A stretch of 64,000 nt of DNA from Bacteroidota bacterium (GCA_004293265.1 RDXZ01000022.1:9158-73157), one strand, 5' to 3'. Positions 12,340-54,539 are shown, numbered from the stretch's first letter. The notes: generated by a model not told the origin, from the letters alone. Program-made: numbers and translations.

Positions 12340-13260
12340 TCATTGTTTGAGATATTTTTCAATTGTTGAATAAATTATTTTATGTTGATTTAAAACGTTG
12401 AAATGATGTGTGTTTTCTATTTTTGTTATTTGACAATCAATATTATTTTGTTTAAAATAAGAAATATTACTCATATTTTGAGATTCTGATGTAACAACAT
12501 AATCATTATTACCATTTGGAACTTCTATATCAAAAAAATTTAAAATCGTTTTAAAATTAGACATCATCGATTTTTGGGCAACAATTGAATGATATAAAAC
12601 ATCATTAGGATGTTGTTTTTGATTTAATTTTGTCAAAAAACTTTCTCTACCCGACTGAACCATTTGAGCAATTGCCAAACCTGAAATAGGTTTACCTAAC
12701 CAACTACTTAATTTTTCTATTAGTTTACTATCCGTTCCTCCCAATAATAAATTAGTTGCATAAATTGTATTTGCCCAAAAACTACCCTTATGTGGTGAGG
12801 CAATAGTTATCAAGGCACTAACTTTATGGTCATTTATATTTTCTGTTAAATATTGCCTTGCAATTAGTCCTCCCATACTATATCCAACCAACATAACTTT
12901 TTTTGTATTTGTTTTTTCAGTAACATAAGTAACAAAGTTCTTTAATTCTACAGAAAGTAAATCAATAGATGTAGTTGAATCACTGAATGAAACAGAAAAA
13001 TAGTCCATTTTTGAAAGTGTATCTCCTTTTGTCGAATTTATTTTTGAATCCTTATCAAAAACTAATTTTCCGCCATAAATCAAATTTTGTTTATCCGCTA
13101 AATAATCGGTAAACTTTTCCTGTTCCCACAAATCAGACTTATTGTTATAACCTGAAATAAGAATGATAGGAGTTTTTAGATTGCTTTTGGGGTAATCATC
13201 GACTGGGACTATGTGACAACCCTCTAAAAATATCAGCAAAATACAGTATATAAATCTCAT
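12340..13260 (-). CDS. lipoprotein alpha/beta-hydrolase (lipase/esterase, PGAP1-like); operon gene 13
   Basis: Lipobox FLEGC. Nucleophile elbow GYSMGG (GxSxG). ASPHKGS motif. 5-nt gap to the upstream gene. Confidence 0.7.
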   Translation of the reverse strand: MRFIYCILLIFLEGCHIVPVDDYPKSNLKTPIILISGYNNKSDLWEQEKFTDYLADKQNLIYGGKLVFDKDSKINSTKGDTLSKMDYFSVSFSDSTTSIDLLSVELKNFVTYVTEKTNTKKVMLVGYSMGGLIARQYLTENINDHKVSALITIASPHKGSFWANTIYATNLLLGGTDSKLIEKLSSWLGKPISGLAIAQMVQSGRESFLTKLNQKQHPNDVLYHSIVAQKSMMSNFKTILNFFDIEVPNGNNDYVVTSESQNMSNISYFKQNNIDCQITKIENTHHFNVLNQHKIIYSTIEKYLKQ

Positions 13261-13265
13261 TTTTT

Positions 13266-14108
13266 TTAATTTATTCTTGGTTTTAAAGTAATGATGGTTT
13301 TAGCTATAATTTCACCATCATATTTCATTATAAATAAATAATCGCCTTTTTTTATTTTTTTAGTCGATACAGGGATAATTTTCTTACCGTCTGAACTTTT
13401 GACAATATCAAAAGAAGTATTATTATATTTCACCTCATAATATATTTTTGAAGGCTCTATTATATGATTTGTTTCAAAAATTACTTTAAAGTGATCTATT
13501 GCATTTAATGTTTTAGGAATTGTTTTTCCATCTTTCTCAACACCTTGAATTGTAAAACTCTTAACAATAATCTTACCTTTAATTTTTTCGAGTTGCTTTT
13601 CCAATATTTCAATTTTTGCTAATAATTCAGTATTTTTATTTTTTAATTCTTGATATTGATTCTGTGTTTCTGAACTCTGGTCAGTGCTTTTTGGATTATT
13701 AGCCATAATTTTTACAATGGAATCATTGAGTATCTTTATTTTTTCTTCTTGTTTATTTTCTTGAAGTTTATGTTGTATTTTTAAAGCCAATGTTTCTTGC
13801 AAATTTTTATTACCATTTCTAATTGCCCCATCAAGTTCTAATTTTAAAGATTGTATTTTTTTTAATCTATCAATCAACAAGGTATCTTTTTCACTACTTT
13901 TTTTCTCCTCAACGCTTAGAATAGAGTCTACAACTACTATTTCTTTTTCTAATATTTTAAGTTTATCTTGTGTAGATACACCTTTAATCACATTATTATC
14001 ATTTGGTGTTTCATCTTTTTTACTACAAGATAAAAAGATAACATTTAGAAATATAATAATTACTAAAATAGTTACTAATTTTTGTGTTTTATTTTCGTTT
14101 TTCATCAA
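13266..14108 (-). CDS. lipoprotein with central coiled coil and C-terminal beta-rich domain; operon gene 12
   Basis: Lipobox FLSC. Heptad-rich E/K/L segment. 20-nt overlap with the upstream gene. Confidence 0.55.
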   Translation of the reverse strand: MMKNENKTQKLVTILVIIIFLNVIFLSCSKKDETPNDNNVIKGVSTQDKLKILEKEIVVVDSILSVEEKKSSEKDTLLIDRLKKIQSLKLELDGAIRNGNKNLQETLALKIQHKLQENKQEEKIKILNDSIVKIMANNPKSTDQSSETQNQYQELKNKNTELLAKIEILEKQLEKIKGKIIVKSFTIQGVEKDGKTIPKTLNAIDHFKVIFETNHIIEPSKIYYEVKYNNTSFDIVKSSDGKKIIPVSTKKIKKGDYLFIMKYDGEIIAKTIITLKPRIN

Positions 14109-15132
14109 TATAAATAAGTTTAATGTAGTTTTTGTTATCTTTTATAATTTTAGTTACTGAAATATAATATTTTTTGTAATATGGGATAACTGATATTGTA
14201 TTTAAGTATTCTTCAATTGTAATATCATTTTTTGGTTTGTTGTTATAAGTTAATTTAACAAATGTGTGACGGTTAGAAAATTTTTTTATAATTTCATTTC
14301 CTAACATTATTTTTTTAATTGTGTCATTTTGTTGAATGAAATTATTTATTTCATTTTCAATTAAATCTTTATCTACAATGGTACTTTTTACATCTGTTAC
14401 TTCTTTTTTAACAGTTTGTTTTTTATCTACATTAATCAAGAAATCTTTGATTATATTTTTTTTAGATTGGTTAGATTTTATTGTAAATATTTCATATTTT
14501 CTAACATTTGTTAGTTTTAAAAAAATTTCTAATTCTTTTTCTAAAAAATTATTTCTTACTAATGAAAGTAGAGCAATGTTTGAGTATTTATCCTTATTTT
14601 TCGATTTATTGTGAATATTACACGAGTCTAAATATCCATTTGCTAAGATAATAACTGAATATTTCTTATCCTTATCTATCTTATCCTCTATATTTTGATT
14701 AAAATACTCCCAAATATCACAAGAAGATATATTTAATGTATCATTTTGTTTTATATCCTCATAAACTTTATTGATATTCGTAATATATTCTTTTTCAAAC
14801 TTTATAAAACTATTTTTTCTTCTTTCTACCAAAGTATCTTTTAAATTTATTTTTATATTATACTCCAGTCCCTCTTTTATTTTTCTATTGTTTGAAACAA
14901 ATAAAAGTTCAAAACTATTCTTGGCACTAACAAATGTATTTTTTTTCACAATTTGTTTATATTCCTCAAATATATTTTTTATTATGTTTTTTTCATCTTC
15001 AATTTCAGTATCATCTTTTTGTTGAAAAGATGATAAATCAACCAAAATAATAAAATTATTATCATTTGTGCTGCAACTGCTAAAAATCACAACACAAAAG
15101 AAAAAATAAATCCATTTAAGTATTTTTTTCAT
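14089..15132 (-). CDS. lipoprotein, unknown function (possibly degenerate vWA-like); operon gene 11
   Basis: Lipobox FSSC. FIILVDLSSF resembles a degraded MIDAS strand. 17-nt overlap with the upstream gene. Confidence 0.5.
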   Translation of the reverse strand: MKKILKWIYFFFCVVIFSSCSTNDNNFIILVDLSSFQQKDDTEIEDEKNIIKNIFEEYKQIVKKNTFVSAKNSFELLFVSNNRKIKEGLEYNIKINLKDTLVERRKNSFIKFEKEYITNINKVYEDIKQNDTLNISSCDIWEYFNQNIEDKIDKDKKYSVIILANGYLDSCNIHNKSKNKDKYSNIALLSLVRNNFLEKELEIFLKLTNVRKYEIFTIKSNQSKKNIIKDFLINVDKKQTVKKEVTDVKSTIVDKDLIENEINNFIQQNDTIKKIMLGNEIIKKFSNRHTFVKLTYNNKPKNDITIEEYLNTISVIPYYKKYYISVTKIIKDNKNYIKLIYIDEKRK

Positions 15133-17482
15133 CTTCTATTGTTAAAATTATCTTTACCTTTATGTCATCAATGTAATCCAAATCAATACGTGATTCCTTT
15201 TTATATTCGTCTTGCATTTCTTTTAATCTCTTTTTTAATAAATTATTCTCTTCTTTTGGTAAAGAAAGAATACCTGTTTCTGACTTACCTCCAAAAAGAG
15301 TGCTTTTACAAGAAATTTTTATCACTTTTACACTTTCATCATTTATTTTGTTTATTTCAATTTTTGATATTTTTGAACCATTGATAAACTTATTCCATTC
15401 ATCTTTTTCAGTTTTAAAATCATCTTTTATATCTTGTAATGTAAAAAGATTATTGATTTGTGACCAGTGTCCTTTTTCAAACAATATTGGCAATGATCGT
15501 TTAAAAATATCCATTTCAATATTACTATATACCGTAGTATATTCTTCTTTCTTTTCATTTATAAAATTAAGAATACTTTGATAATCCTTTATTTCTCCTG
15601 AATCAACCCATTTTTTATAGTCATCGTGGTACTTTTTAAATTCAGTAGTAGATATACCAACGGGAAGCGAAGTAATAACAGGCAGAGGAGTGTGTACTAT
15701 TGTTTGATTATCCATATTTTCAATTGGCTCAAGTATATACTTACAACCCTCTATCATTACATGTGATATTCCAAAAAGTAACAACAACTCCAGAACAAAC
15801 AACAATATTAAAGCACCTTTAGGAATAGTCTTTGTAAATGATATAGGAATAATATAATCTTTTTTAAGTGCATCCACCGAAACTTTTAATGTAGGTTGTA
15901 TTGGATTATCACTCAATAATGTTCCGTTATACGTAAATTTTAGCTTTTGATTATTGGATAAAGTAGCATTTTCTTCTACTACCTTATTCATAGTGATACT
16001 ACCTTCTTTATTTGTAACTGGTAGATTATTACCATCTAATACTTGATACTCTATTTTTAAGTTAGGATAATAAAAATATTTATCATCAGAAGTATTTTGT
16101 TTCTCATATTTTGCATAATTACTAACAAATGATAAATGCACTTTAGATTCTGGAATGTTGTTTAATATATAATCGCTGGTCATATTATCCGAAGATGTAT
16201 GATAAAATTCTATTTTTTTATCAACTTTTAATGGTTGATTTAAAAAATTACTACTTATGTTATCTTTTATATCAATTACTTGAACATTATACCACTCATT
16301 TACACTTTTAAACATATTTATAATACCTGTTTCTATTTGATTAGATGAAATAAGATTAAATGTAATGTTATTACTTTTCGATATTGCATCAATTTTATTC
16401 CTTAAATTTGACATTGAATTTTTATCTAATCTTTTTCCTTCTTGCTGTTTTATTTTTTCATCTTGAATAAAATCACTTAAAATAGTAACAGAAATATGAC
16501 ATAAATTTTTATCCAATCCTTTTGTCATAATATCTATTTCATTTATTAGTTTTTGAAATGATGTATTCTTACCCTTTTTTATCTTAAATATATTAATTGT
16601 ATCAGAGATTTTTTTCATTATATCTGTCTTAGATGTGGTGTCAGTCTTTATATGTTGATATCTAAAAAAAATAGTTGTATCTTTATTAGTATTATCAAAA
16701 TTTTTGTAGTAACTTATTGTATCTGAAAAATAAATGACATTAAAATATGTTTTTTTATCTTTATTTTCTGGAAATAAATAGACTAATTTTTCTATTATAT
16801 TTTTATATTTTGCTGTAACTGAGTCAGGAATAGATTCGCTCTGGTCTATACAAAATAAATAAACATCTCCTGTTACTTTACTTTTTTTATTTATAAGATT
16901 GTTTATGTTTTCTTCCTTTTTATGATCAGATTGCAGAAAGTCAAAATGAGTTTTAAAGATAAAAGCATCTATATTTCCCATTTTTTCTATTTGTACTGTA
17001 TATAAAGACAATAAAAAAGTAATAGCAGAAATAATAAACAATGTAAATCTAACCCAATTTTTTCCCCAAAAGTGATACTTTATAAAATTTTCCCAAGATT
17101 TATCTTTTTTTATTTTTTTTATTTGTTCCCGAGAATAAATGATGGATAAAAGAGTAATTATTAGCACCGCTAAACCAATCAAAATACTAAATAAAATATA
17201 ATTTTGATTATTGATGTAATAAAAAGAATAAATTAAACCAGATAATGACAATAATGCTAATGGTGGAGATAATATTATTATCCAACGAGGAATACTACTA
17301 ATTTCTTGAGACTTTGACAATAAATAATATAATATTAGGCTTGATAATAATGCTAAAGCACATGAAAATATCAAAATTAATATAATTTGATACCCCAAAA
17401 AAGCAATGCTTAAAAATATGGCTAACAATAAAAGACATATTATGCCTTTAAGAAATCTATAGATTGTAATTTTTTGTTCCAT
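15116..17482 (-). CDS. polytopic membrane protein with vWA-like domain; operon gene 10
   Basis: About 5-6 N-terminal TM helices. YLFCIDQSESI carries a DxSxS MIDAS motif (nt 16832-16846). ILSDF strand. One further TM (ALILLFVLELLLLFGI), then a 220-aa C-terminal domain. Confidence 0.5.
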   Translation of the reverse strand: MEQKITIYRFLKGIICLLLLAIFLSIAFLGYQIILILIFSCALALLSSLILYYLLSKSQEISSIPRWIIILSPPLALLSLSGLIYSFYYINNQNYILFSILIGLAVLIITLLSIIYSREQIKKIKKDKSWENFIKYHFWGKNWVRFTLFIISAITFLLSLYTVQIEKMGNIDAFIFKTHFDFLQSDHKKEENINNLINKKSKVTGDVYLFCIDQSESIPDSVTAKYKNIIEKLVYLFPENKDKKTYFNVIYFSDTISYYKNFDNTNKDTTIFFRYQHIKTDTTSKTDIMKKISDTINIFKIKKGKNTSFQKLINEIDIMTKGLDKNLCHISVTILSDFIQDEKIKQQEGKRLDKNSMSNLRNKIDAISKSNNITFNLISSNQIETGIINMFKSVNEWYNVQVIDIKDNISSNFLNQPLKVDKKIEFYHTSSDNMTSDYILNNIPESKVHLSFVSNYAKYEKQNTSDDKYFYYPNLKIEYQVLDGNNLPVTNKEGSITMNKVVEENATLSNNQKLKFTYNGTLLSDNPIQPTLKVSVDALKKDYIIPISFTKTIPKGALILLFVLELLLLFGISHVMIEGCKYILEPIENMDNQTIVHTPLPVITSLPVGISTTEFKKYHDDYKKWVDSGEIKDYQSILNFINEKKEEYTTVYSNIEMDIFKRSLPILFEKGHWSQINNLFTLQDIKDDFKTEKDEWNKFINGSKISKIEINKINDESVKVIKISCKSTLFGGKSETGILSLPKEENNLLKKRLKEMQDEYKKESRIDLDYIDDIKVKIILTIEDEKNT

Positions 17483-17504
17483 TGTTGTATTGAAATTTTT
17501 TAAC

Positions 17505-18689
17505 TTATATAGTTTGTAATAATGCGCACAACTTAGTTCGCCATGTGCTAAAACTTTCTCCTACTGGCATATCAATAAAATTTCCTCTCAATAGCCAAAA
17601 TTTGTTTTGATCATCTTTAGACAACATACTTATAGATGAATTTATTTTGCCAAATAAATCAGGTATCTCTAAAAGTGTTGCTTCTAAAGCAATTTTATAC
17701 CATTCATTTTTTAGTTCTTCATATATTTTTACTGTTTGTATTTCTTCTCTCCATTCGCTTTTTAGTTCTTCATATTTTGCTTCTGGAATTTCCTCTTTCC
17801 ACTCATTTTTTGTGTACGTTTTTTCGGAAGACAAACCTATATCATTAGTATTATCATTACCTATAAAATAATCAACAATGTCTAAACCAATTTCTTTATA
17901 AAGATATGCAGGCATATTATTATTTTTTGAAAAAGGATTGACCATTATTTTTAATATTTTTACATCTTCTATTCCTTTAAAATACTTAAACATACTTGTA
18001 TCTTGTATTTTATTTTGGTTTAAGTTAATATTTTTTAATTTTTTTAATTTTTCAAGCACAGAAATATCTATAATTTGATTAGAATATAAATTAATATTTT
18101 CTAAGTTTAGGAATCTTTCTAATATTGTGATGTTTTTTATTTTATTATGTGACAAAGATAAATCTGTCAAGTTTTCAGTTCCTTCAATTGATTCTATATT
18201 TTCAATATCATTATGTTGTGCTAATAATATTTTTAAATCACAACTTACACTCAAGTTATGTATATGATTACGTGATATATTTAAAAAAACAATCTTCTTT
18301 TGTTTAGAAATTTTTATACTACGTATTTTATTACGAGAAACATCAAGATAAACTAAATCTTGCATTTTCTGTAAACAATTCATATTAGTAATTTGGTTAT
18401 TACTTACATCTAAATGGGTTAAGTTTTCCATATTTACAAATCCATCTGTGTTATTTATGTTGTTTCCAGAAATATTTAGTATTTTTAAATATGGTAAATT
18501 AAAACGAGGATTTGAAAAATTAATAATTCCTGCTTTCCCCTTTCCTCCAACATTCATTAAGTTTAAACCTATTATTTCTTGATTCTCCAAACAACTATAC
18601 GATAATGGAGTGTGTAACACTTCTCTTTCTGTTACCCTCTTTAATTTAACTGCCAATGAGTTTTCAATTATACTTATTTGATTTTCCAT
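17505..18689 (-). CDS. leucine-rich-repeat (LRR) protein, no signal peptide; operon gene 9
   Basis: About 9 consecutive 22-aa LxxLxLxxNxIxxI repeats (for example LTHLDVSNNQITNMNCLQKMQD). C-terminal EW(K/R)EEI tandem motif plus a helical domain. Confidence 0.8.
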   Translation of the reverse strand: MENQISIIENSLAVKLKRVTEREVLHTPLSYSCLENQEIIGLNLMNVGGKGKAGIINFSNPRFNLPYLKILNISGNNINNTDGFVNMENLTHLDVSNNQITNMNCLQKMQDLVYLDVSRNKIRSIKISKQKKIVFLNISRNHIHNLSVSCDLKILLAQHNDIENIESIEGTENLTDLSLSHNKIKNITILERFLNLENINLYSNQIIDISVLEKLKKLKNINLNQNKIQDTSMFKYFKGIEDVKILKIMVNPFSKNNNMPAYLYKEIGLDIVDYFIGNDNTNDIGLSSEKTYTKNEWKEEIPEAKYEELKSEWREEIQTVKIYEELKNEWYKIALEATLLEIPDLFGKINSSISMLSKDDQNKFWLLRGNFIDMPVGESFSTWRTKLCALLQTI

Positions 18690-18691
18690 TT

Positions 18692-19753
18692 TTAATCATC
18701 TTTTTTACGAATATTTTTCATTATTGTAGCAATATTTACCGCAAATCCTGCATTATCAATATCTGTTCTTTTAAAAGTTGCAATTCCTACTACCTCGCCA
18801 TTCATATTCATAACAGGACCTCCACTATTTCCTTGTGAAATAGCCGCATCTATTTGTATCAGCCCTTCGTCCTCATTACCCATTGAACGAATGGCAGAAA
18901 CTATTCCTTTAGTTATTGTTTGTTCAAGACCTCTTGGGCTTCCTATAACGAATATTTCTGAACCTGATTTAGGTGTTTTTTTTGCTAATTTTAAGTATGG
19001 AAATTTTTTATTTTTACTTTCTATTTCAAATTTCGCATAATCAAAAAAATTATTATATATCGATACTTTTTTAATTTTATAAAAAGCACCATCTTTCATC
19101 TTTATAAAGGCAATATCTGCTCCTTTTAGTACATGAAAATTAGTTAAACATTCATTGGGAGATATAAAAAAACCAGAACCTAAACTTGTTTCTCCTTCTT
19201 CATTGCGAGCATGTATTGTAAAAACTGATTCAGAGTTTTTTTCTACTAATTTTTCTAATGAATATTTTTTTTCGTTACTAACTTGATTTTCTAACTCATC
19301 ATTTTCTTTTTCATCAACCGAATCTTTGTCACTGATTAATAAACCATATTCACCATTTGAAAAACATTGCTCAAAAACATTTAAACTATCAAATAAATTT
19401 TTTTTATTTAGTTTTGATAATCCTTTTTTAAGAAGTTTTTTATTCAAAGACTCACCACTGTTTGCGTCTTTCAAATAAGCATTTATTTCATCAGTATTAT
19501 TGTTGATAGGTTGGTAACTTTTACTATCCTGAACAATCATTACATTTTTACCTATCCAATTAGACAACTGATTCGATATTTTGGCATCTTCTTCTATTCC
19601 TATCAAATTTACTTTTACACCGTTTTCGAGTTCAATTGTATTAGAATCTATAATTTTAATGATTTTTTGTGGCGAACTTTCTATATCAGTACTTTTACAA
19701 CTAAAAAAAAAGCTGCTAATCAATAAAATGATTGCAAACATTATATTTTTCAT
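18692..19753 (-). CDS. lipoprotein with C-terminal trypsin-like (S1/DegP-type) serine protease and N-terminal SNase-like OB region; operon gene 8
   Basis: Lipobox FFSC. Triad context TNFHVL (His), FDYAKF (Asp), GNSGGPV (Ser). The N-terminal IIDSNTIELENGVKVNLIGIE resembles the thermonuclease OB strand, which is weak evidence. Confidence 0.65.
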   Translation of the reverse strand: MKNIMFAIILLISSFFFSCKSTDIESSPQKIIKIIDSNTIELENGVKVNLIGIEEDAKISNQLSNWIGKNVMIVQDSKSYQPINNNTDEINAYLKDANSGESLNKKLLKKGLSKLNKKNLFDSLNVFEQCFSNGEYGLLISDKDSVDEKENDELENQVSNEKKYSLEKLVEKNSESVFTIHARNEEGETSLGSGFFISPNECLTNFHVLKGADIAFIKMKDGAFYKIKKVSIYNNFFDYAKFEIESKNKKFPYLKLAKKTPKSGSEIFVIGSPRGLEQTITKGIVSAIRSMGNEDEGLIQIDAAISQGNSGGPVMNMNGEVVGIATFKRTDIDNAGFAVNIATIMKNIRKKDD

Positions 19754-19770
19754 AATTATATTTATTTTAA

Positions 19771-20388
19771 TTAATTTACTTTTAAAGAACCTATTTTTGG
19801 AATAATTTGTATTAAAAAACGTTGATTTAATTTATCGTCTGAGTCTATTCTACCTACTCCTTCAGTACCATTGCCTGCTATTTGTATTTCACAAACTTCA
19901 CTTTGAAAATTTACATCATTTTTTTTCCACAAGTCATATAACGCTAAAGCTCGTCTGTAACTCAGGAGATAATTTTCGTAGTTATTGCCTGTTTTTGATG
20001 AACTTCCTTCAATAATTAATAGATACTTGATATTTTTATCTTTTTTACGAACTTCTTCTATCATTCTATTAATTTCTTTTCCTGCTCCGATAAGTTCTTC
20101 ATAATTATCTTCGGGTATTTTATCATCTCCCAACTTGAATTGAACTTGTTTCTTAAGCACATGTCTTTTATATTTTGGTTGAAATTCAAAATAGTCATCT
20201 TTTAATTTACTCAATGATGTTTCTATTTCTATTATTTTTTCATATTGTTTGACCATTACTTTTAACCGAGATTTTTCATTTTGAAACAATGTAAAACTCA
20301 ATACAAATAAAATCAACATAACTACAAATAAAACAGTCATCAAATCCACATAACTTGCCCAAAAAAAATCCCTTTTGCTTTGTTTCAT
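19771..20388 (-). CDS. MotB/ZorB-like stator subunit with OmpA-type peptidoglycan-binding domain; operon gene 7
   Basis: The N-terminal FWASYVDLMTVLFVVMLILFV matches the MotB TM helix, including the conserved Asp (D15, nt 20344-20346). The C-terminal IIEGSSSKTGNNYENYLLSYRRALALYDL is an OmpA-like core. Confidence 0.65.
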   Translation of the reverse strand: MKQSKRDFFWASYVDLMTVLFVVMLILFVLSFTLFQNEKSRLKVMVKQYEKIIEIETSLSKLKDDYFEFQPKYKRHVLKKQVQFKLGDDKIPEDNYEELIGAGKEINRMIEEVRKKDKNIKYLLIIEGSSSKTGNNYENYLLSYRRALALYDLWKKNDVNFQSEVCEIQIAGNGTEGVGRIDSDDKLNQRFLIQIIPKIGSLKVN

Positions 20389-20406
20389 CTTGTATAAATA
20401 TAAAAT

Positions 20407-21837: not shown

Positions 21838-21849
21838 AATAAACCTCGT

Positions 21850-23256: not shown

Positions 23257-23313
23257 AATGTTATAAATTGAAAGATAAAACAATGAGTTGTTAAACCCAT
23301 TGTTTCATTGTTA

Positions 23314-26300
23314 TTAGTTGCCGTATTTATTATAAATTTCTTTTCCAACTTGATACAATTTTTCTTTTATTTCATAAAAAAACAAAGTTTCAGAAATTTC
23401 TTCATTTTTATTGGTATCATTTTGGTTCATAAGATGCAATCCTTTTTTGATTCCATCTTCTTTATTTTGTGCCCACCATAGCATTATATCTTGTAAATTT
23501 GTTTGTATTCCCAAATTAGATAAATGCTTTGTGATAGATGAAGTAGTAAATAACATATTGATAAAATCAACTACATTTTCAGCAACACTATTTTTTACAT
23601 CAGCAGTAATATCTTTATAATCTTTGATGTTATCTTGATTGATAAGATTATTTTTATGATTTTTTTGTCCTAACCAACAAATAGATTCATTAGATTGTGA
23701 TGACTTCATATACCCACTGTACAAAATTCCTACAGGTGTTTGAGGAGTATATTGATATAAACAGCATCCTTTTGCTGTAGCTTGTTTCGGGTCTTTTATA
23801 TTTACCAACTGAAAATTAGTAGGTGCTTCTTTACCACTTACTTTTGAGAGTATAGCCTTTGTAATTTCAGTAATTGTACCCATCAAAGGATCTAATATTT
23901 GAATGTATTTACTACCCATTCCTGTGAAAACAAAATATCTTGGTATGTTTATATTTTTAAATTTGATAATTTCTGCTAAATGATAAACAATAGAAGCATA
24001 ATGTATCAATAGTTGCACTCGTAAATGTTTACAATCCCCAAGAAACGATAAAAAACCTAATGCTTCGTCATATTTAAAACATAATGATATGATTTCATTT
24101 GATTTCAGTGTTTTTTTTGAAAAATCATCAAGTACATTTTTTGCACGTTTAAACGCATCATCTTCTCTATTTTGTGCGTCTATATATTTTTTAAATGATT
24201 GTAAAAATGGATTATCTTTTGAAGGTTGTTCATTGAATCCCTCTCCCCACAGTGTATCTCCCGCAAATCTGAAAGATGTATTGAAAGTATTTCCATTTGT
24301 AAAGTTAAAAAAAACATCAGTAGTACCGCCTCCAATGTCTATATTACAAAGATCCTCATTTGGAACTAATTCATTAGCCTGTAAATAACGGTAAGGTGCA
24401 TACGCCTCTGATAAGCAATAAGTATCTCTTTGTGATTTGAATATTTGTCTAAAATTATCATTCCACAACGAACAGAGTTTATCTAAATCTATTCTTTGCA
24501 TGCTCAAAGGTGCAGACCAGTAAATATTTGTATTGTTAATATTGCCACCTATCAAAGCTACTTTGTTTCTAATTAACCGAAGTAATTCTTCTAAATAAAC
24601 GCTTGTATTTTGTTTTTCATTACCCGTCGTCCATTTAAGATTAAACTCGGTTTTATTACCACCTGTTATTACTTCACCATCTCTCAAATAAGGATTAAAA
24701 AGTATGTTGATATTACTCAATAGTAATTTAGGGGTTGAAGACCTTGTATTAACCAAAATAGAAGTTCGCATTGGTAAATCACCGTCATTGATAATAGAAG
24801 GCACAAATTGTGCTTGTGGTATATTTCCAAAAGGTGCCAAGTATAGCCCACCAGCATCGTTCCACATATCTTTGGCTTCATATTTTTCTTTTACATCTTG
24901 TTTTGACTTGTCTGGTTCGTTCAAGGTAATCATTTGCATATCTTTTTCTTCTATTGTAAAAGTAGATATATGTTTCTCACTTCCTTTTGTATAAGCTATA
25001 TAGGTGTTAGTAGTACCAAAATCGACTCCAAATTGATATGATTCATATCCATTCTTACACTCCACCCACTTTGGTATGATTAAGTTCCTAATTACTTTAT
25101 CATTTTCTTCATTTGGATAAGTAACTTCTATATAATCCCAAGGTGTATTATTAACTTGAAAAAATGTAGTATTTTGACCACTATCTGATTGTTTAAAGTC
25201 TCTCTTATCCTCAAAAACACTTTTATGCTCTCCATAGGGTTTTTTATCTTTATCCTCTACTCTTGGCAAAGAATTTTGTTTGGGAATACTTTTTTGGTTT
25301 GTTGATGTTTTGTCATTTTGTTGGTAATAGAAATCCAATTTAAAATCATTTTGTAGATCTTTTTGTTTTTCTATAAACATTACTTTATAAAAATCATTGT
25401 ATTCATCTTCATCTTTTCCCATCATTTTATAAAAAGGGAAAATACCAATATTTATATTTATCTTGATAATTGTTCCATAGTCATTTTTTGAGGGTTTATA
25501 ATAATAATATTTTTCAAAAATTATTTTACCCTTTTTAATAGGAATGGTTAATGAAACTCTAACAGATTCTTTATCTTTTATACTAAAAGTAAGCATTGAC
25601 TCTATATCTTTAGGTTCAAAGTAATCAAAGAATTTTTTTTTAAGAGGACACAAATAATTAAATTTTTCGAATTTTTTAAGACTATTTTCGACACCCGTTT
25701 CATATTCTACCTTGCCTATATGAAAGCGCGAGGTTTGGACATTATAAGGTAATGCCAATAAATGAGATTCTAAAAAATCGTTTATTGTTAAATATGGATA
25801 TTTTTCGGCAACAATAGGTAAAATTCTATCAGATAAAGGAGTATTTTCATCAAGTAAGGGAACTTCATACGTAGATTTCCAATCACTTTGTGTATATTTC
25901 ATACCACCTGAACTAAATCCTGCCATTAAAACCAAAGGAGGATTGTCTATATCAGGGATTAATACATTACTATTATGTTTAATTACAAAATCACTTTTTT
26001 GTTTGACATCAACGCTACCTTTTCTTCTTGTTGGAATTTCTATATTATTATAAACCACCACTGATTCCCTATTATCATACCTAAGAATTTCATAATCGTT
26101 TTCATATAAATTGTTAGCATGGTATGTTTCCTTATCCCTTTTTAGGTTTTGCATTTTTGTACGAAAATCTCTGTTTCCGTCATTTATAAATTTAGGTTGA
26201 TTTTCAATGTATTTATATAAATTTTTACATTTTGTAGTTAATGAATTATGTGCTAAAAATATTTTATACATAAACTCTTGAAATTCTTGTTCTCTGGCGT

Positions 26301-26874
26301 ACAAGGGTTGTGCTTGATTCTCATCAAAATAGTGATGACCTGTAGTATTGGCAATTTTTAATTGACTTATATCGGCAGTAGGAAAAAGTAATGTAAAAGG
26401 TGATGTACCTCCTATTACTCTATTTTCAAATAAAAACATATAAATATTTGATTCATTTGCCATTATTTTTCCTGCACTTGTATATAATTCTAAAGTTTCT
26501 GCTAATAACCTTTGGGCTTCATTTCCAGAATTTTTCAATTTATCGAGTTGCTGGTCTTTGTTCCATTTAGTGATTTTAAGACCTTGGTCTTTCAATGTAT
26601 GATAATTAAAAACTATTTCCATTAAATCCAAACATTTGGAAACCAATCTATGATGTATAGAGTTTCCAGTAGGATTTTCAGCAACCATACCAAAAACAGA
26701 GTCGTACAAATGCATCTGTGCAAAAGGACTTGGCACTGATGTAACAACTTTTTTAATATCATTTTCGTTATTATCTTTAAATTTGGTTTGAATTGTATCC
26801 ATTCCTATTTTTTCAAAAGGACTCCAGTACTCTCCTGTGCTGTCTATTGAATAATTAATTAAAATTTTAGCCAT
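23314..26874 (-). CDS. 1186-aa protein with C-terminal Hsp70/actin-like (ASKHA) ATPase domain and 600-aa unknown N-terminal region; operon gene 4
   Basis: Phosphate-1 motif GVDFGTTNT (nt 24997-25029). Phosphate-2 motif IDIGGGTTD (nt 24316-24342). Adenosine-like FVFTGMGSKY. No P-loop seen. Confidence 0.6.
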   Translation of the reverse strand: MAKILINYSIDSTGEYWSPFEKIGMDTIQTKFKDNNENDIKKVVTSVPSPFAQMHLYDSVFGMVAENPTGNSIHHRLVSKCLDLMEIVFNYHTLKDQGLKITKWNKDQQLDKLKNSGNEAQRLLAETLELYTSAGKIMANESNIYMFLFENRVIGGTSPFTLLFPTADISQLKIANTTGHHYFDENQAQPLYAREQEFQEFMYKIFLAHNSLTTKCKNLYKYIENQPKFINDGNRDFRTKMQNLKRDKETYHANNLYENDYEILRYDNRESVVVYNNIEIPTRRKGSVDVKQKSDFVIKHNSNVLIPDIDNPPLVLMAGFSSGGMKYTQSDWKSTYEVPLLDENTPLSDRILPIVAEKYPYLTINDFLESHLLALPYNVQTSRFHIGKVEYETGVENSLKKFEKFNYLCPLKKKFFDYFEPKDIESMLTFSIKDKESVRVSLTIPIKKGKIIFEKYYYYKPSKNDYGTIIKININIGIFPFYKMMGKDEDEYNDFYKVMFIEKQKDLQNDFKLDFYYQQNDKTSTNQKSIPKQNSLPRVEDKDKKPYGEHKSVFEDKRDFKQSDSGQNTTFFQVNNTPWDYIEVTYPNEENDKVIRNLIIPKWVECKNGYESYQFGVDFGTTNTYIAYTKGSEKHISTFTIEEKDMQMITLNEPDKSKQDVKEKYEAKDMWNDAGGLYLAPFGNIPQAQFVPSIINDGDLPMRTSILVNTRSSTPKLLLSNINILFNPYLRDGEVITGGNKTEFNLKWTTGNEKQNTSVYLEELLRLIRNKVALIGGNINNTNIYWSAPLSMQRIDLDKLCSLWNDNFRQIFKSQRDTYCLSEAYAPYRYLQANELVPNEDLCNIDIGGGTTDVFFNFTNGNTFNTSFRFAGDTLWGEGFNEQPSKDNPFLQSFKKYIDAQNREDDAFKRAKNVLDDFSKKTLKSNEIISLCFKYDEALGFLSFLGDCKHLRVQLLIHYASIVYHLAEIIKFKNINIPRYFVFTGMGSKYIQILDPLMGTITEITKAILSKVSGKEAPTNFQLVNIKDPKQATAKGCCLYQYTPQTPVGILYSGYMKSSQSNESICWLGQKNHKNNLINQDNIKDYKDITADVKNSVAENVVDFINMLFTTSSITKHLSNLGIQTNLQDIMLWWAQNKEDGIKKGLHLMNQNDTNKNEEISETLFFYEIKEKLYQVGKEIYNKYGN

Positions 26875-26916
26875 TGTTTTAGTAGTTTTAAATTTAATAA
26901 ATACGACAAAAATATT

Positions 26917-28386
26917 CTACCCTATTATATTTTTATCAAATACTTTTTCCATTGCTTGGTACATTATTTTCATAAATTTTTTTTCACTTTGCTCACTTGA
27001 TTCCTTTTCAAAATTATTAAGTTGAGTAGTAAAAGTATCCTCCGAAATTCCTGAGACTAACCATCCAGTCTTAATTTCTTTATCCTTTAACATTTTATTT
27101 AAGTTACTATTTTTAAAATCAAAAGGTACAAAAGATCTTTCATTTGTTAGCATCTCTTCCATAAATATATAGTATTTTGCTACGAAATCTTTGAGATAAG
27201 GATAAAAAACATCATTATCGTTTAAATACTTATCTTTAAGATTCATCCTTTTAGCATAATCCTTTTTATTTAGATCTTTTTCTATTGTATTTTTAATGTA
27301 GTGTGCAAAATAATGAAAACATACCATTGGTTTATAAATATCTTTTTTTGTACCATCGTAAAAATGTGAAAAATTAATTTCTTTTGCATCTTCTTTAATA
27401 CCAAAAGCATAATGTTGTGTGCCTGATGTATTTTCCCATAATCTATCAGGTTGTTCCATAAAATGAAGCATTGAAGTTGCCGCCATAATTTCTATAAAGT
27501 GTGCCTCATTTTTTTGATTCAATCCACCTTCAGAGTTTTTATATTGTTTTTTGAATGTATCTCCCATATAATATAAAGAATCTAATTTTGGTAGATTATT
27601 TTCATAATATAACAAAGCCTCTTTGGTTTTTGTAGTAAAAATATTTGAGTTAATCGCACTTGAATTATCTGATTGAACATCAAAATAAGGCATCACACTC
27701 ACAGCACCAATTCGAGCATTTTTTATTTGAGGCGCTTTTGTTAAATTATTCTTAGATTCTTCCCCAATTCTTAAATTTTCTAAAATTAATGGAAAACCAG
27801 ATGCACCTGTTCCCCCAAATATAGAGCTAACGATAAATATTCTATCTTTATTGTCGGCGTTGTAACAATCACCAAAAAACTCCCATTCTTTTGAGTCTTT
27901 GATACTATTTAAAACAATTGTACCAACGTTTGGGCTTCCTCTAAAACCAACATCAAGTTTTTTCTTTAAATTATCTTCTGAGAATAATAATTGTATCAAA
28001 TCTTGTGTTTCGGTTTCTAATTGACTATATTCTAAAAAATCCTCAAAAGTTTTTGTTATACCACCTGCACCAAAAGAAAAACGAAAGGAATTATCAGCAA
28101 TTCTACCTGTATTATCCAAATCCTTTAAAGTTGATATTTCGGTTTTAAAAAAACCTTTTTCTTGGTACCCATTATACCCCAATTGCTTGTGAATATTTTG
28201 ATATAGTTTCAACAATTCTATTGTACGCACTGTATCTCCATTTTGCATATCAGGGTCTATGAATATTGGTATCACTCTTTTAGCTTGGATATCAGCTCCA
28301 GAAGCGAGCAATATTGTTAAAGCCTTAACAACTCTTGCACCTGTTCCACCTATAGCAAAAATATATAAATCTGAATTTATTGGCAT
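26917..28386 (-). CDS. tubulin/FtsZ-superfamily GTPase-like protein (Tubulin_2 / FtsZl-1-like); operon gene 3
   Basis: T1-like loop IFAIGGTGARVV (nt 28336-28353) and T4 tubulin-signature-like SSIFGGTGASGFP (nt 27796-27816). Confidence 0.55.
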   Translation of the reverse strand: MPINSDLYIFAIGGTGARVVKALTILLASGADIQAKRVIPIFIDPDMQNGDTVRTIELLKLYQNIHKQLGYNGYQEKGFFKTEISTLKDLDNTGRIADNSFRFSFGAGGITKTFEDFLEYSQLETETQDLIQLLFSEDNLKKKLDVGFRGSPNVGTIVLNSIKDSKEWEFFGDCYNADNKDRIFIVSSIFGGTGASGFPLILENLRIGEESKNNLTKAPQIKNARIGAVSVMPYFDVQSDNSSAINSNIFTTKTKEALLYYENNLPKLDSLYYMGDTFKKQYKNSEGGLNQKNEAHFIEIMAATSMLHFMEQPDRLWENTSGTQHYAFGIKEDAKEINFSHFYDGTKKDIYKPMVCFHYFAHYIKNTIEKDLNKKDYAKRMNLKDKYLNDNDVFYPYLKDFVAKYYIFMEEMLTNERSFVPFDFKNSNLNKMLKDKEIKTGWLVSGISEDTFTTQLNNFEKESSEQSEKKFMKIMYQAMEKVFDKNIIG

Positions 28387-28405
28387 ATTTTTATTTATTT
28401 TTTAA

Positions 28406-28807
28406 TTAAAAAGGAATTTTACTTGCGTGATTTTTTCCCAAATTTTTTAATGTTATTGACACTAAAAAATATAAGATACTTGAATAAAAAATATTGATTA
28501 TAACCAAATACCATGCATAAGTATTATAATCTACCGCATTAGCATTACGTATATAATAATTATTTGCAAAAATTATTACAACTAAAGCAGATATGATAAT
28601 ATTTAATAATAGGATAAAAAACCACCAAATAATGGTAGCATACTTTGTAGTCGAAAGTTTATTTAAAACTAAGTAATATACAGTAGGTAGTAGTAAACTA
28701 CTTAAAATGTTTATATATGCTACAAACACAAAAAACTTTTTAAAATCTCTACCATATTTGTAAGAACCTATAAAAACCTCATAAAGAGATATAAAAAAAT
28801 CATTCAT
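28406..28807 (-). CDS. small polytopic membrane protein (3-4 TM); operon gene 2
   Basis: 133 aa, almost entirely hydrophobic helices. 19-20 nt gaps to both neighbours. Confidence 0.55.
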   Translation of the reverse strand: MNDFFISLYEVFIGSYKYGRDFKKFFVFVAYINILSSLLLPTVYYLVLNKLSTTKYATIIWWFFILLLNIIISALVVIIFANNYYIRNANAVDYNTYAWYLVIINIFYSSILYFLVSITLKNLGKNHASKIPF

Positions 28808-28827
28808 TTTTATTATTTATTTTAAAA

Positions 28828-30123
28828 TTAGAAATAGTACTCATTTTGTTTATATGCTTCTAAAATTCCTTCTATCAGTTCTTTAAAAGCAAAAGTTTTT
28901 TTATTGTTTTCTTTCTTGTTAATATCTTTATCATTTTCAGTAGACCATTTTTCATACCAAGTAGAATTTTTTTTCTTTAGTTTTATCGACAACGTATTTT
29001 TTGTTGATATTGCATTATTGTTTAGTTCTAATGTTATAAAATGTGTATATGGTTTTAAATCATTTTGTTGTTCAGATGAAATAGTTTTAAAAAAATCTGA
29101 TTGTTTTTTCACAATGACTGATTCTTTTTTTACAAGATTATCTACCTCTATATTTTCTTTTAAATATTTTTCATCTTGGACATTTATTGGATAAGATTTT
29201 AAATCTAATCCAATTGTAAACTTAATCGTTTCACCCAATGGTAATTTCTCTATATGTGTGGTATCTACATAATCCCAACCGCCAGCCCTACCTTCAGAAG
29301 ATAAAATAGTATGTTTTGGTGCATTATATTGCCAACCAATATGTAATTCTTCCCTTGCTTTAAATTTTTTATCATTAATAATATAATTTGTAAATTTTGG
29401 CATTAAACTTTTTCTGCCAATAACCCATATATAAAAAGGACGTAAATTTGTTAGACAACAAGATTCTGGTTGATTCGAATGATTAAAATATGTTCCGTCA
29501 AACTTTGATAAAAAAGCATAAACAGAGATTCCAAAGTCTTTTTGATATTTTGCAAATGCTCCTGTAACCTTTCCTTTTAATCCATCACTATCTTGATTAG
29601 CATACGGTTCTTTTTTTATCTTATCTGTGGGATAAGACATTATACTTTCAGTAAAAAATATATTTATAGATGATGTGTCTTTATTTTTAAAAATATTTTC
29701 AAAAATAGTGTGAATTGGAGTATCTTTTCCATTTCTAAATCCCCAATCCTCGTCCATTCCATCAGAAAACTCACCAACTAAATCTCCTGCTGATTTGATT
29801 TTATTTTTATAAGATTCAACTTTACCACCATCTAAAAGATAAATTTTCAGTTTTTCATCAAATGAAGTATCTGAAAAATAACTTAAGAAAGTTCTAACTT
29901 TATTTTTAAAGTTATCATCTTCTTCTCCTCTTTTTGGTCCGTTTGTCAAATAACCACCCATACTTGCTGATTTGTCAAAAAAAATATTAATTTTTAAGTT
30001 ATTATTTGAATTTATTTTAGAAGCAACACCCATTTTTAATTCTAATTGATGATTGGTGCAACCAAGAGAGAGTATCAAAAAGAGAAAAACAATCAAATTT
30101 CGTATGTATATTCTTAATATCAT
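28828..30123 (-). CDS. vWA-domain lipoprotein; operon gene 1
   Basis: Lipobox LSLGC after ATG at 30123 (the track TTG start at 30159 is less likely). INIFFDKSASMGGY is a DxSxS MIDAS motif (nt 29962-29976). Confidence 0.6.
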   Translation of the reverse strand: MILRIYIRNLIVFLFLILSLGCTNHQLELKMGVASKINSNNNLKINIFFDKSASMGGYLTNGPKRGEEDDNFKNKVRTFLSYFSDTSFDEKLKIYLLDGGKVESYKNKIKSAGDLVGEFSDGMDEDWGFRNGKDTPIHTIFENIFKNKDTSSINIFFTESIMSYPTDKIKKEPYANQDSDGLKGKVTGAFAKYQKDFGISVYAFLSKFDGTYFNHSNQPESCCLTNLRPFYIWVIGRKSLMPKFTNYIINDKKFKAREELHIGWQYNAPKHTILSSEGRAGGWDYVDTTHIEKLPLGETIKFTIGLDLKSYPINVQDEKYLKENIEVDNLVKKESVIVKKQSDFFKTISSEQQNDLKPYTHFITLELNNNAISTKNTLSIKLKKKNSTWYEKWSTENDKDINKKENNKKTFAFKELIEGILEAYKQNEYYF

Positions 30124-31467: not shown

Positions 31468-31468
31468 A

Positions 31469-54198: not shown

Positions 54199-54539
54199 AT
54201 ATTTGAAGTTCAAAAGATTGTTTTTAAATTGAATATTTTACAAAAGTAGAGATTATTTTATGAAAATCAAAATGTAATAAAAGTAAATTTGAAGATAAAT
54301 ATTGAAAAAATGACTGAGAAATCTTACATTTATCTAAAAAAAGTAAATTTTTATCGAAAAAAGTGGTTTTGAAGTGTATAATATTTTTTTTATTGAAAAA
54401 AAATATCATACCTTTGCGAATTAAATATTTTAATTGCTAACTTTGTAACTAAAATTATTAATTTTGTAAATATTTTACTACTTACTTATTCATTTTAAAA
54501 TAGCAAAAAATAAAAAATCACAATACGTATTTTAATTAT

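Follow-up and report, generated by a model that had tools for sequence, protein, structure and literature searches.

Tubulin-like and actin-like NTPases constitute the two great cytoskeletal lineages, and a conserved operon that pairs one of each with a motor of the flagellar-stator type has no characterised precedent. Such a pairing is encoded in a 64,000-nt stretch of the genome of a Bacteroidota bacterium (GCA_004293265.1, RDXZ01000022.1:9158-73157; hereafter, the window), where 13 genes, numbered g1 to g13 in the direction of transcription, follow one another on the same strand (Table 1). The locus raises two questions, namely, which of these genes belong together and what they would do. 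The original prediction, made from the sequence of the window, treated all 13 as a single machine. We found that the conserved system consists of seven to nine genes, not thirteen: g1 to g7, joined in about a third of loci by genes for an exported protease, a nuclease or both.

Related loci were collected in two ways. A scan with the g4 profile, covering one genome per species, yielded 13 loci, from Hymenobacter, Solirubrum, Gillisia, Flavobacterium, Sphingobacterium, Spirosoma, Rudanella, Rikenellaceae, Prevotella and Sodaliphilus, and a metagenome survey with the g7 profile covered the 80 closest loci out of 557 g7 relatives. As judged from tblastn searches and maps of open reading frames (ORFs), the order of g1 to g7 is the same throughout about 100 Bacteroidota loci, which answers the question, posed by the original prediction, of whether these genes co-occur elsewhere. 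Homologues of g6, g4 and g3 were all present in the 26 of 26 g7-anchored loci with at least 9.3 kb of upstream DNA, a linkage that is biased to close g7 relatives and overstates exclusivity; g6 lies upstream of g7 in 46 of 46 loci and g4 in 33 of 34. Seen from the other end, g6 and g7 are both found in 8 of the 9 g4-anchored genome loci with enough downstream DNA. The operon ends at g7 in most loci. None of g9, g10, g11, g12 and g13 has a homologue in any of the ~108 related loci, and the conserved entity is therefore g1 to g7; a conserved 13-gene machine finds no support in this comparison.

The product of g3 (locus tag EAZ85_03085) matches the Pfam families Tubulin (E = 1.4e-5) and Tubulin_2 (PF13809; E = 8e-4), in both cases under the gathering score, with 19.2 bits against a cut-off of 27 for Tubulin_2. 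Among the 42 members of the g3 family compared, Tubulin is matched by 36 and Tubulin_2 by 33 (E < 0.01, best 1.2e-9), and some relatives hold a precomputed PF13809 assignment. Since g3 itself stays below the threshold while 33 of its 42 relatives match, the family is, by these profile scores, peripheral to PF13809, and hence to FtsZl1, rather than clearly inside it. Two motifs are invariant in the family, GIGGTGxRV and SSIFGGTGAxGFP. An AlphaFold (AF2) model built from the 42 homologues reached a predicted local distance difference test score (pLDDT) of 87.4, and its top Foldseek matches in the PDB were all tubulins or FtsZ (probability 1.0, E ~6e-4). The template-modelling scores (TM-scores) of these matches are low, 0.25-0.40, so that g3 is only distantly related to the tubulins and FtsZ proteins in the PDB. 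Both the fold and the G-box motifs of the tubulin/FtsZ superfamily (an N-terminal GxGxxG and a T4 loop of the GGGTG[ST]G type) are nonetheless present, as had been proposed for g3 from its sequence. Homologues of g3 fall into more than 2,700 clusters at 90%.

The giant protein g4 had been assigned to the ASKHA superfamily, which includes actin, MreB and Hsp70, and this assignment was borne out by sequence motifs, profile comparison and structure. Its residues ~1-600 are helical and then beta-rich, residues ~610-1050 form an ASKHA ATPase domain resembling MreB and the nucleotide-binding domain (NBD) of Hsp70, and a helical domain occupies the C-terminus. No match to g4 was found in PADLOC or in Pfam and NCBIfam (reporting limits of E <= 0.1 or 0.01 for the latter two). 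However, the phosphate-1 (FAIDFGTTNT), phosphate-2 (IDIGGGTTD) and adenosine (GxGSKY) motifs are invariant in 35 homologues, and the g4 profile, compared with PDB sequences, matched MreB (E = 1e-5) as well as an actin, FtsA and Ppx. The AF2 model (pLDDT 82) retrieved MreB and the DnaK NBD in Foldseek (E = 3e-8, TM-score normalised to the target 0.52-0.57), at an identity of only 10-14%; among viral structures Foldseek retrieved Hsp70 homologues only. The ASKHA fold and all three diagnostic motifs are thus found in g4. MreB, FtsA, ParM and Hsp70 proper were ruled out as identities of the protein, no full-length match above threshold having been obtained to any of these families. Outside the ASKHA domain, about 700-750 residues (~600 N-terminal and ~100 C-terminal) match nothing known. 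A profile search gathered 1,217 clusters at 50% identity (E <= 1e-30), and this giant ASKHA family of ~1,200 clusters carries no annotation.

Two observations suggest that the tubulin-like and the ASKHA protein act together. First, a library representative of 1,611 aa, P0219, consists of a g3-like part (41% identity, E = 6e-109) fused to a g4-like part. P0219 would be a natural g3-g4 fusion, for which an assembly or gene-calling artefact is possible, and as such it argues that g3 and g4 work as one unit. Second, cyanobacterial plasmids and some Bacteroidales retain the triad g2-g3-g4 but not the stator (see below), which also points to joint action.

The g6 and g7 products have the features of a stator of the MotAB/ZorAB type, with a predicted channel aspartate. 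In g6, three N-terminal transmembrane helices are followed by a helical cytoplasmic tail of ~270 aa (270-300 residues across the family); the g6 of the window, like some other copies, has an extra transmembrane helix at the C-terminus. The protein matches Pfam MotA_ExbB just under the gathering score (E = 3.8e-3) and PADLOC ZorA (E = 2.4e-5), and scores 21.9 bits against NCBIfam ZorA (ZorA_2), for which the cut-off is 100. Its signature motifs, TPLYLGLxGTFxGI and GVLIAMxGSFxGLxLT, are invariant. In g7, an alignment of homologues revealed an invariant Asp15 in the transmembrane helix (plug-and-transmembrane motif FFWxSYVDLMT), followed by an OmpA-like peptidoglycan-binding domain with the motif LSYRRA. 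Pfam OmpA is matched with E = 2e-5 (25.2 bits against a cut-off of 27.2), PADLOC ZorB1 with E = 8.8e-12, and NCBIfam ZorB1 with 21.7 bits against a cut-off of 400. The pair accordingly carries both the TM2/TM3 signature of A subunits and the aspartate-bearing helix of B subunits that characterise the MotA/ExbB/TolQ and MotB/ExbD/TolR families. Of the two earlier annotations, MotA/ZorA-like with a long tail for g6 was supported at the level of motifs and weak profile matches, and MotB/OmpA-like for g7 by Asp15 together with the OmpA and ZorB1 matches.

The remaining core genes encode proteins located in or exported through the membrane. The g1 lipoprotein, with the lipobox LSLGC, has a beta-rich C-terminal part and an N-terminal domain that resembles a von Willebrand factor A (vWA) domain in carrying DKSAS, a motif like that of the metal ion-dependent adhesion site (MIDAS). 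The motifs [DE]xSxSM and SILISDxIYS are conserved in 12 homologues, and the g1 profile matched only the integrin alpha-E I-domain in the PDB, at a non-significant E of 0.7. Thus, of the earlier description as a vWA lipoprotein, the lipoprotein part stands and the vWA part consists of a MIDAS-like motif and this non-significant I-domain match. Homologues of g1 lie upstream of g3 in 44 loci, with a median identity of 23%. For g2, a positional equivalent of 127-160 aa was found in every locus whose ORF map was read; g2 is homologous over its full length to a Hymenobacter protein of 130 aa (pairwise E = 2e-9), and on cyanobacterial plasmids the gene before the tubulin-like one likewise encodes an equivalent, with four transmembrane helices (4-TM). 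The g5 product begins with a signal peptide and a periplasmic domain of ~230 aa; a single transmembrane helix leads to a coiled coil in the cytoplasm and to a C-terminal domain, which is conserved and homologous to a Hymenobacter protein of 511 aa (E = 1e-6). Positional equivalents with a signal peptide and one transmembrane helix are present in most loci. The sequence features previously described, four transmembrane helices in g2 and a bitopic coiled-coil topology in g5, were seen again, with the number of helices in g2 better given as 3-4. Pfam and NCBIfam returned only coiled-coil noise for g5, and no family match was found for g2, g5, g11 or g12. Both g2 and g5 are too divergent for tblastn, and their homology was shown by pairwise tests. 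The extracytoplasmic parts diverge fastest: the median identity of 23% for g1 and the mostly undetectable g5 compare with 43% for g7.

Immediately downstream of the core, g8 encodes a lipoprotein in which a trypsin-like protease follows a domain resembling staphylococcal nuclease (SNase). The protease matches Pfam Trypsin_2 (E = 8e-26, 92 bits against a cut-off of 27.6) and NCBIfam Do/HtrA (E = 1e-34), and its His/Asp/Ser triad is intact (TNFHV, FFDYA, GNSGGP), as in S1/HtrA proteases; a PDZ domain was not found in g8. The N-terminal domain aligned with a profile of SNase lipoproteins (hhalign probability 93.8%, E = 1.8e-7), and no match to Pfam SNase was obtained. The catalytic motifs of staphylococcal nuclease are altered, with DSNT in place of DGDT and EEDA in place of DAPE, and the domain is degenerate and probably inactive. 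Both domains that had been recognised before are therefore present, the SNase-like one in degenerate form. Elsewhere, exported hydrolases recur as separate genes. A trypsin-like lipoprotein gene directly follows g7 in 14 of 63 loci, a cluster of retropepsin-like aspartyl-protease lipoproteins (PF13975) occupies the same position in 14 loci, and an intact SNase lipoprotein is encoded in 10 loci, usually behind a protease; occasionally, another nuclease is encoded after g7. As protease and SNase recur separately after g7 in other loci, g8 looks like a fusion of these two accessory genes.

The system is built from at least two separable modules, because the tubulin/ASKHA triad occurs without the stator and the stator occurs without the tubulin and ASKHA genes. 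In the cyanobacteria Picosynechococcus and Gloeothece, mobilizable plasmids carry genes for a 4-TM protein, for a tubulin-like protein with 27-30% identity and for a giant g4 homologue of 1,096-1,118 aa (hhalign probability 99.9%, E = 6e-32), and no stator; the triads are followed by proteins that are secreted (with a signal peptide) or bitopic and by a TM2-domain protein. Some Bacteroidales loci also lack the stator. In Parabacteroides distasonis, conversely, homologues of g6 (hhalign E = 1e-40) and g7 (36% identity) stand behind a gene for a DUF4433 protein, with no tubulin or ASKHA genes. This four-gene unit is located behind a relaxase-like gene in an integrase-bounded island and has the appearance of a Zorya-like variant, so far undescribed, from Bacteroidales.

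Gene content varies between g3 and g6. In one complete genome (L113, 15070-20898), three extra genes encoding proteins of 423-466 aa lie between the giant and the stator, and in Hymenobacter and Solirubrum a small gene of 130-160 aa is inserted between g3 and g4 (for example, L001, 11552-12031).

Full copies of the core were also found in 11 IMG/VR contigs, where integrase, excisionase, baseplate-hub, tail-fibre and portal-like genes adjoin it; in one of these settings (L105), phage-type genes lie immediately upstream of the core on the same strand. No homologue of g3 was found in 50,697 sequenced GenBank phage genomes, and the IMG/VR contigs are therefore the only basis for regarding the core as phage-encoded. 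A Prevotella record labelled as a plasmid carried no annotation. Among 149 proteins encoded in the flanks of the core, strong PADLOC matches were obtained to type I restriction-modification, MADS, DpdF, AbiEi, AbiD and several PDC candidates. For instance, a full-length PADLOC candidate, PDC-S68, is encoded immediately upstream of g1 in Gillisia (L007, 488-4294), and another core locus adjoins genes for an ADP-ribosylglycohydrolase and, beside it, a 1,492-aa helicase-nuclease with DUF4011, AAA_11, AAA_12 and REase_MTES_1575 domains (L056, 8945-14821).

What, then, might the conserved system do? The folds and motifs of g3, g4, g6 and g7, the conserved order of g1 to g7, the ties between g3 and g4, the variable exported hydrolases, the reuse of the stator with a DUF4433 protein, the prophage-like contigs, the mobilizable plasmids, the defence neighbours and the fast-diverging extracytoplasmic parts lead us to favour, at slightly less than an even chance, an envelope-anchored role in biological conflict, that is, anti-phage or anti-invader defence or envelope surveillance resembling Zorya, a defence system built around the ZorAB motor. 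Coupling to ion-motive force with Zorya-like logic is consistent with this evidence but unproven. Under such a scheme, in which complex formation, rotation, the direction of signalling and the defence role are what we infer, the g6/g7 stator would be anchored to the cell wall, and ion flow would drive its rotation upon perturbation of the envelope. The rotating g6 tail, together with the bitopic g5 and the membrane protein g2, would signal to the cytoplasmic g3/g4 pair, which might assemble or switch as one unit in an NTP-dependent manner. Outside the cytoplasm, g1 would have a sensor, processing or effector function, as would the exported hydrolases, protease and nuclease. In its most specific form, namely, a ZorAB-like, ion-driven, wall-anchored rotor that triggers NTP-dependent assembly of the tubulin-like and ASKHA proteins into polymers that serve defence or envelope surveillance as a signalling or effector scaffold, with the exported protease and nuclease as auxiliary effectors, the scheme is tentative and rather unlikely.

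Several observations weigh against a role in conflict. PADLOC analysis of the 13 proteins and the flanks in the window produced only weak ZorA/ZorB and generic protease matches and identified no known or candidate defence system, and no match to ZorC, ZorD, ZorE, ZorF or ZorG was found among the same proteins. Moreover, the NCBIfam scores of g6 and g7 given above fall far below the curated ZorA and ZorB thresholds. Exported hydrolases would be unusual effectors for intracellular defence, and in 41 of 63 loci no gene of this kind follows g7. The contextual evidence has its own limits: the borders of IMG/VR contigs can include host DNA, and the census of defence neighbours is suggestive only, as enrichment is not established where there is no genome-wide background. 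In Hymenobacter and Solirubrum, the locus stands in stable synteny with the housekeeping genes for LemA, TPM phosphatase, NTP transferase and peptidase S9, and looks vertically inherited rather than island-like. To these points are added the bias in the g7-anchored linkage and the weak, statistically unsupported assignment of the vWA fold to g1. A literature search found no experiment on any member of the system.

The main rival is a machine for membrane remodelling, vesicle formation or envelope maintenance, along the lines proposed for FtsZl1 by Makarova and Koonin, and we regard it as doubtful. According to this explanation, g3 and g4 would deform or organise the inner membrane, the stator would couple ion-motive force to the cell wall and outer membrane as Tol-Pal does, and the lipoprotein hydrolases would be cargo, for example, of outer-membrane vesicles. 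All core parts other than the two NTPases are indeed membrane or envelope proteins, the accessory genes all encode lipoprotein hydrolases (protease, nuclease and, in the window, lipase), and the system is vertically stable among housekeeping genes in Hymenobacter. The prediction of 2010 (PMC2875224) pointed the same way, and Tol, Ton and Gld, as described in PMC11890865, set a precedent for 5:2 stators that energise envelope processes. However, such a function does not readily account for the occurrence of the core in prophage-like contigs, on mobilizable plasmids, in integrase islands and beside defence genes. The composition downstream of g4 is variable, the stator is missing from some Bacteroidales and cyanobacterial versions, and the same type of stator is reused with a DUF4433 protein, whereas less modularity would be expected of a housekeeping machine.

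Quite unlikely, in our estimate, is that all 13 genes form one obligate envelope-spanning machine of which the leucine-rich repeat (LRR) protein, the second vWA protein, the lipoproteins and the lipase are integral parts. The genes from g7 to g13 are separated by 2-22 nt or overlap by 17-20 nt, which makes co-transcription likely, and their G+C content is similarly low; furthermore, an LRR gene follows the OmpA-like gene in Deinococcus, and exported hydrolases recur after g7. Set against this, g9 to g13 are absent from the ~108 loci, and most operons stop at g7. The only match to g10 among 5.8 billion proteins was g10 itself. The closest relative of the locus, L016, is uninformative on g8 to g13, as its contig ends at g4. 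The 13-gene machine is thereby largely refuted as a conserved entity, and g9 to g13 are a lineage-specific addition to the core, probably co-transcribed with it. The individual annotations of these five genes fared better. The LRR repeats of g9 were confirmed by Pfam; the lipase-like lipoprotein g13 matched PGAP1 (E = 3.6e-12), Abhydrolase_1 (E = 3e-11) and Lipase_2 (E = 7e-7) and has the expected nucleophile elbow; and the lipoboxes of g11 and g12 agree with their description as lipoproteins. For g10, the designation as a polytopic vWA protein is supported by the MIDAS motif DQSES and by the NCBI name 'VWA domain-containing protein', and is weakened by the Pfam VWA match (E = 2e-4), which at 22.0 bits falls below the cut-off of 23.8.

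Tubulin-like and actin-like NTPases are the classic motors of plasmid and phage segregation, and a function for a mobile element, either DNA segregation or positioning in the manner of TubZ, PhuZ and ParM or a part in the phage life cycle, would fit the relatives that cyanobacterial plasmids carry and those that immediately follow tail genes in prophage-like contigs. We consider it highly unlikely. The search of the 50,697 phage genomes was negative, no centromere-binding adaptor gene is evident, and the Gloeothece plasmid has its own ParA/ParB. Plasmid or phage segregation was rejected because a lipoprotein and membrane proteins are always present, in addition to a wall-anchored stator in the usual case, none of which partition systems need, and because most copies are chromosomal. 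Least credible of all is a surface adhesion or motility complex like Agl-Glt of Myxococcus, in which actin-like filaments in the cytoplasm and a small GTPase cooperate with a Tol-like motor and with adhesins of the envelope. The ion-driven stator, the actin-like ATPase, the GTPase-like protein and the vWA (adhesion-type) lipoprotein g1, which would be the adhesin, are reminiscent of Agl-Glt. A conserved outer-membrane beta-barrel or long periplasmic track component is missing, the system occurs in gut lineages that are not known to glide (Prevotella and Rikenellaceae), and both the mobility and defence context and the weak vWA assignment of g1 speak against such a complex.

In the window, the 13 ORFs span positions 12340-30123, all on the minus strand, and no gene on the opposite strand interrupts the run. 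The intergenic distances are 20 (g1/g2), 19 (g2/g3), 42 (g3/g4), 30 (g4/g5), 12 (g5/g6), 18 (g6/g7), 17 (g7/g8), 2 (g8/g9), 22 (g9/g10), -17 (g10/g11), -20 (g11/g12) and 5 nt (g12/g13), negative values being overlaps; with the ATG start of g5, the g4/g5 gap is 57 nt instead of 30 nt. These coordinates match the gaps of 2-42 nt and overlaps of 17-20 nt reported originally, and given such tight spacing, co-transcription of g1 to g13 is predicted to be likely. The operon has a G+C content of 26.1% (27.2% for g1-g7, 24.5% for g8-g13 and 20% for g11), compared with 30-34% for the flanking TonB receptor, GH31, CHAT, S8 and MacB genes, so that the A+T bias noticed before is real but modest, at ~4-6 G+C points. 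A promoter scan yielded sigma-70 matches at or below the shuffle expectation, the sigma-70 consensus not being relevant to Bacteroidota promoters, and an Rfam scan of the window returned no RNA family. A terminator scan detected one weak site on the coding strand inside the operon, an A+T-rich hairpin of 15 bp with a T-rich tract behind it in the g4/g5 gap, which could attenuate expression of the distal genes.

Upstream of g1 lies a divergent gene pair. Its 215-aa product faintly resembles Sigma70_r2 (E = 0.019) and Sigma70_r4 (E = 0.069) of Pfam, and its 291-aa product is 26% identical to a protein encoded at the same position in the closest relative; the two may be a regulator pair. Beyond them, on the strand of the operon, is a gene for a CHAT-domain protein, of which a CHAT/TPR counterpart, 29% identical, occupies the same position in the closest relative. 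The CHAT gene and the divergent pair may represent a linked regulatory or effector module, and the tie of both to the operon is tentative. Farther upstream, a protein of 1,240 aa has a CHC2 (DnaG-type) zinc finger together with a DEAD/ResIII helicase, a primase-helicase-like architecture, and a faint PADLOC match to 'RTasDnaG-like' (DRT); its presence is a hint that this region belongs to a mobile or variable island. The end of the window is occupied by a reading frame of at least 3,165 codons, which runs past the 3' end in a block of 39% G+C, compared with ~28% elsewhere in the window, and is presumably the adhesin gene mentioned in the original prediction.

Table 1. Positions of g1 to g13 and of other features in the window, and of partial versions of the system in other genomes
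Feature	Position	Strand	Description
g1	28828..30123	-	Lipoprotein, 431 aa (443 aa from an upstream TTG at 30159); first core gene
g2	28406..28807	-	Small inner-membrane protein, 133 aa, 3-4 transmembrane helices; conserved core
g3	26917..28386	-	Cytoplasmic tubulin/FtsZ-superfamily GTPase-like protein, 489 aa; conserved core
g4	23314..26874	-	Giant cytoplasmic protein, 1186 aa; conserved core
Hairpin	23275..23308	-	Weak terminator-like site
g5	21850..23283	-	Bitopic protein, 477 aa from TTG (468 aa from ATG at 23256); conserved core
g6	20407..21837	-	MotA/ExbB/TolQ/ZorA-type stator A subunit, 476 aa; conserved core
g7	19771..20388	-	MotB/ZorB-type stator B subunit, 205 aa; last gene of the conserved core
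g8	18692..19753	-	Exported lipoprotein, 353 aa; SNase-like OB domain (~30-140) and HtrA/DegS-like trypsin protease; recurrent accessory
g9	17505..18689	-	LRR protein, 394 aa, no signal peptide; Pfam LRR_4 E = 5e-19
g10	15116..17482	-	Polytopic membrane protein, 788 aa (734 aa in the NCBI call), weak vWA domain
g11	14089..15132	-	Lipoprotein, 347 aa; lipobox FSSC; no Pfam or PADLOC match
g12	13266..14108	-	Lipoprotein, 280 aa; lipobox FLSC, then KKDE; coiled-coil middle; no Pfam or PADLOC match
g13	12340..13260	-	Lipoprotein alpha/beta-hydrolase, 306 aa, PGAP1/lipase/esterase type; GYSMG nucleophile elbow
Divergent pair	30820..32344	+	215-aa protein with faint sigma-70 r2/r4 similarity; 291-aa membrane protein
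CHAT gene	32559..35144	-	CHAT-domain (caspase-like) protein, 861 aa; Pfam CHAT E = 2e-29; upstream, same strand as the operon
CHC2/helicase gene	38634..42356	+	1,240-aa protein
Long frame	~54500..64000	+	At least 3,165 codons
L109	NZ_CP016476.1 10223-20749		Picosynechococcus plasmid; reduced relative
L110	NC_014503.1 11505-19788		Gloeothece plasmid; reduced relative
L114	NZ_OY725823.1 9523-13645		Parabacteroides distasonis; DUF4433 protein of 419 aa (long coiled coil), 222-aa protein, stator A of 498 aa, stator B

We compared the system with the described ones that it resembles. With the 5:2 ion-driven motors MotAB, ExbBD-TonB, TolQR-TolA and GldLM, it shares the signature P-x-x-G-L-x-G-T-x-x-G in g6 and the plug/Asp motif and OmpA-like domain in g7. 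The partners are different, flagellar, TonB/TolA and Gld components being absent, and the topology of g5, with its signal peptide, periplasmic N-terminal domain and cytoplasmic C-terminus, is opposite to that of TonB and TolA.

A second comparison concerns the GTPase-centric (GAP1-N2) systems of Firmicutes and Actinobacteria, in which Kaur, Burroughs, Iyer and Aravind (2020, PMC7159879) found tubulin together with vWA proteins and for which they predicted a role in conflict. In these systems, too, a protein of the tubulin superfamily accompanies vWA proteins, one of them a multi-transmembrane protein with an extracytoplasmic vWA domain, and sister systems contain an ASKHA protein of the Hsp70 type; they are read as NTP-dependent, threshold-regulated conflict systems. 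In contrast to the system described here, they are defined by DO-GTPase, GAP1 and FNIII components, they keep tubulin and Hsp70 in separate themes, no stator of the MotAB type was described in them, and they come from other phyla.

The FtsZl1 systems, in turn, were predicted to act in membrane remodelling by Makarova and Koonin (2010, PMC2875224), whose main text reports vWA, GTPase, kinase and OmpA proteins around FtsZl1. Additional file 5 of that paper gives the order hyp-478, hyp-109, FtsZl1-1070, MotA-TolQ-ExbB-411, OmpA-201 and LRR-825 for Deinococcus (DR_0540-DR_0535), with DR_0535 and Deide_2p00810 as LRR neighbours, and vWA, FtsZl1-1085, B7-524 and MotB-215 for Anabaena and Cyanothece; the only true Bacteroidetes entry, a 913-aa protein of B. 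caccae encoded with a cysteine protease, has a different architecture. The original prediction had credited the 2010 description with neither a ZorA-like tail nor an LRR protein nor the ASKHA giant and hydrolases. The ASKHA giant and the exported hydrolases are indeed absent from it, but MotA-like and LRR proteins were listed. The likeness in gene order is close: a vWA or 420-480-aa protein, a small protein, the tubulin-like protein, the MotA-like and the MotB/OmpA-like protein, followed in Deinococcus by an LRR protein, as by g9 in the window. The tubulin-like proteins are in or near Pfam Tubulin_2 in both cases, and both kinds of system are experimentally uncharacterised. As in FtsZl1 operons, an OmpA/MotB-family protein is present, here g7, and as in the Deinococcus and cyanobacterial variants of these operons, so is a MotA-like one, g6. 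The adjacent vWA protein is less certain, given the E of 0.7 for g1 and the sub-threshold score of g10, and the P-loop GTPase or Ser/Thr kinase that is frequent but not universal in these operons found no match among the 13 proteins. Unlike the tubulin-like proteins of 900-1,100 aa in FtsZl1 systems, those described here measure ~480 aa; the separate ASKHA giant of ~1,150 aa and the bitopic protein appear in neither of the 2010 lists, and recurrent exported protease and SNase genes are a further difference. No paper describing this Bacteroidota system or its Deinococcus homologues was found in the literature.

The motor itself is closest to Zorya. As described in PMC11946911 and PMC11890865, Zorya combines ZorAB with ZorC/D, ZorE or ZorF/G; ZorAB is there a 5:2 peptidoglycan-binding motor driven by the proton-motive force, and its tail passes the invasion signal to soluble effectors. 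Like Zorya types I-III, the system described here has a MotAB-like pair in which the B subunit bears a transmembrane aspartate and a peptidoglycan-binding domain and the A subunit has a long helical cytoplasmic tail, and g6 and g7 have their best PADLOC and NCBIfam matches in ZorA and ZorB. In addition, one stator module is paired with differing soluble partners, sometimes beside other defence genes. Zorya proper was rejected as an identity, neither the ZorA/ZorB thresholds being reached nor the partner proteins found. The tail of g6 measures ~270-300 aa, compared with ~500 aa in ZorA of E. coli, an extra C-terminal transmembrane helix is present in some g6 copies, and g6 and g7 are accompanied instead by a tubulin-like GTPase, a giant of the ASKHA type, membrane proteins and a lipoprotein. 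The system is thus a Bacteroidota member of the broad, uncharacterised FtsZl1-type class in which the bitopic protein, the hydrolases and the combination of a short tubulin-like protein with an ASKHA giant encoded on its own are new. If the analogy to Zorya is true, the rotating tail of a stator would be read by polymer-forming NTPases, not by nucleases, and the concept of ZorAB as a sensor module would extend to a new phylum and a new set of partners; if it fails, the locus would give a first means of approaching the FtsZl1 systems for which membrane remodelling was predicted in 2010. Cultivable hosts, including Hymenobacter, Flavobacterium, Sphingobacterium and Cesiribacter, make the question testable.

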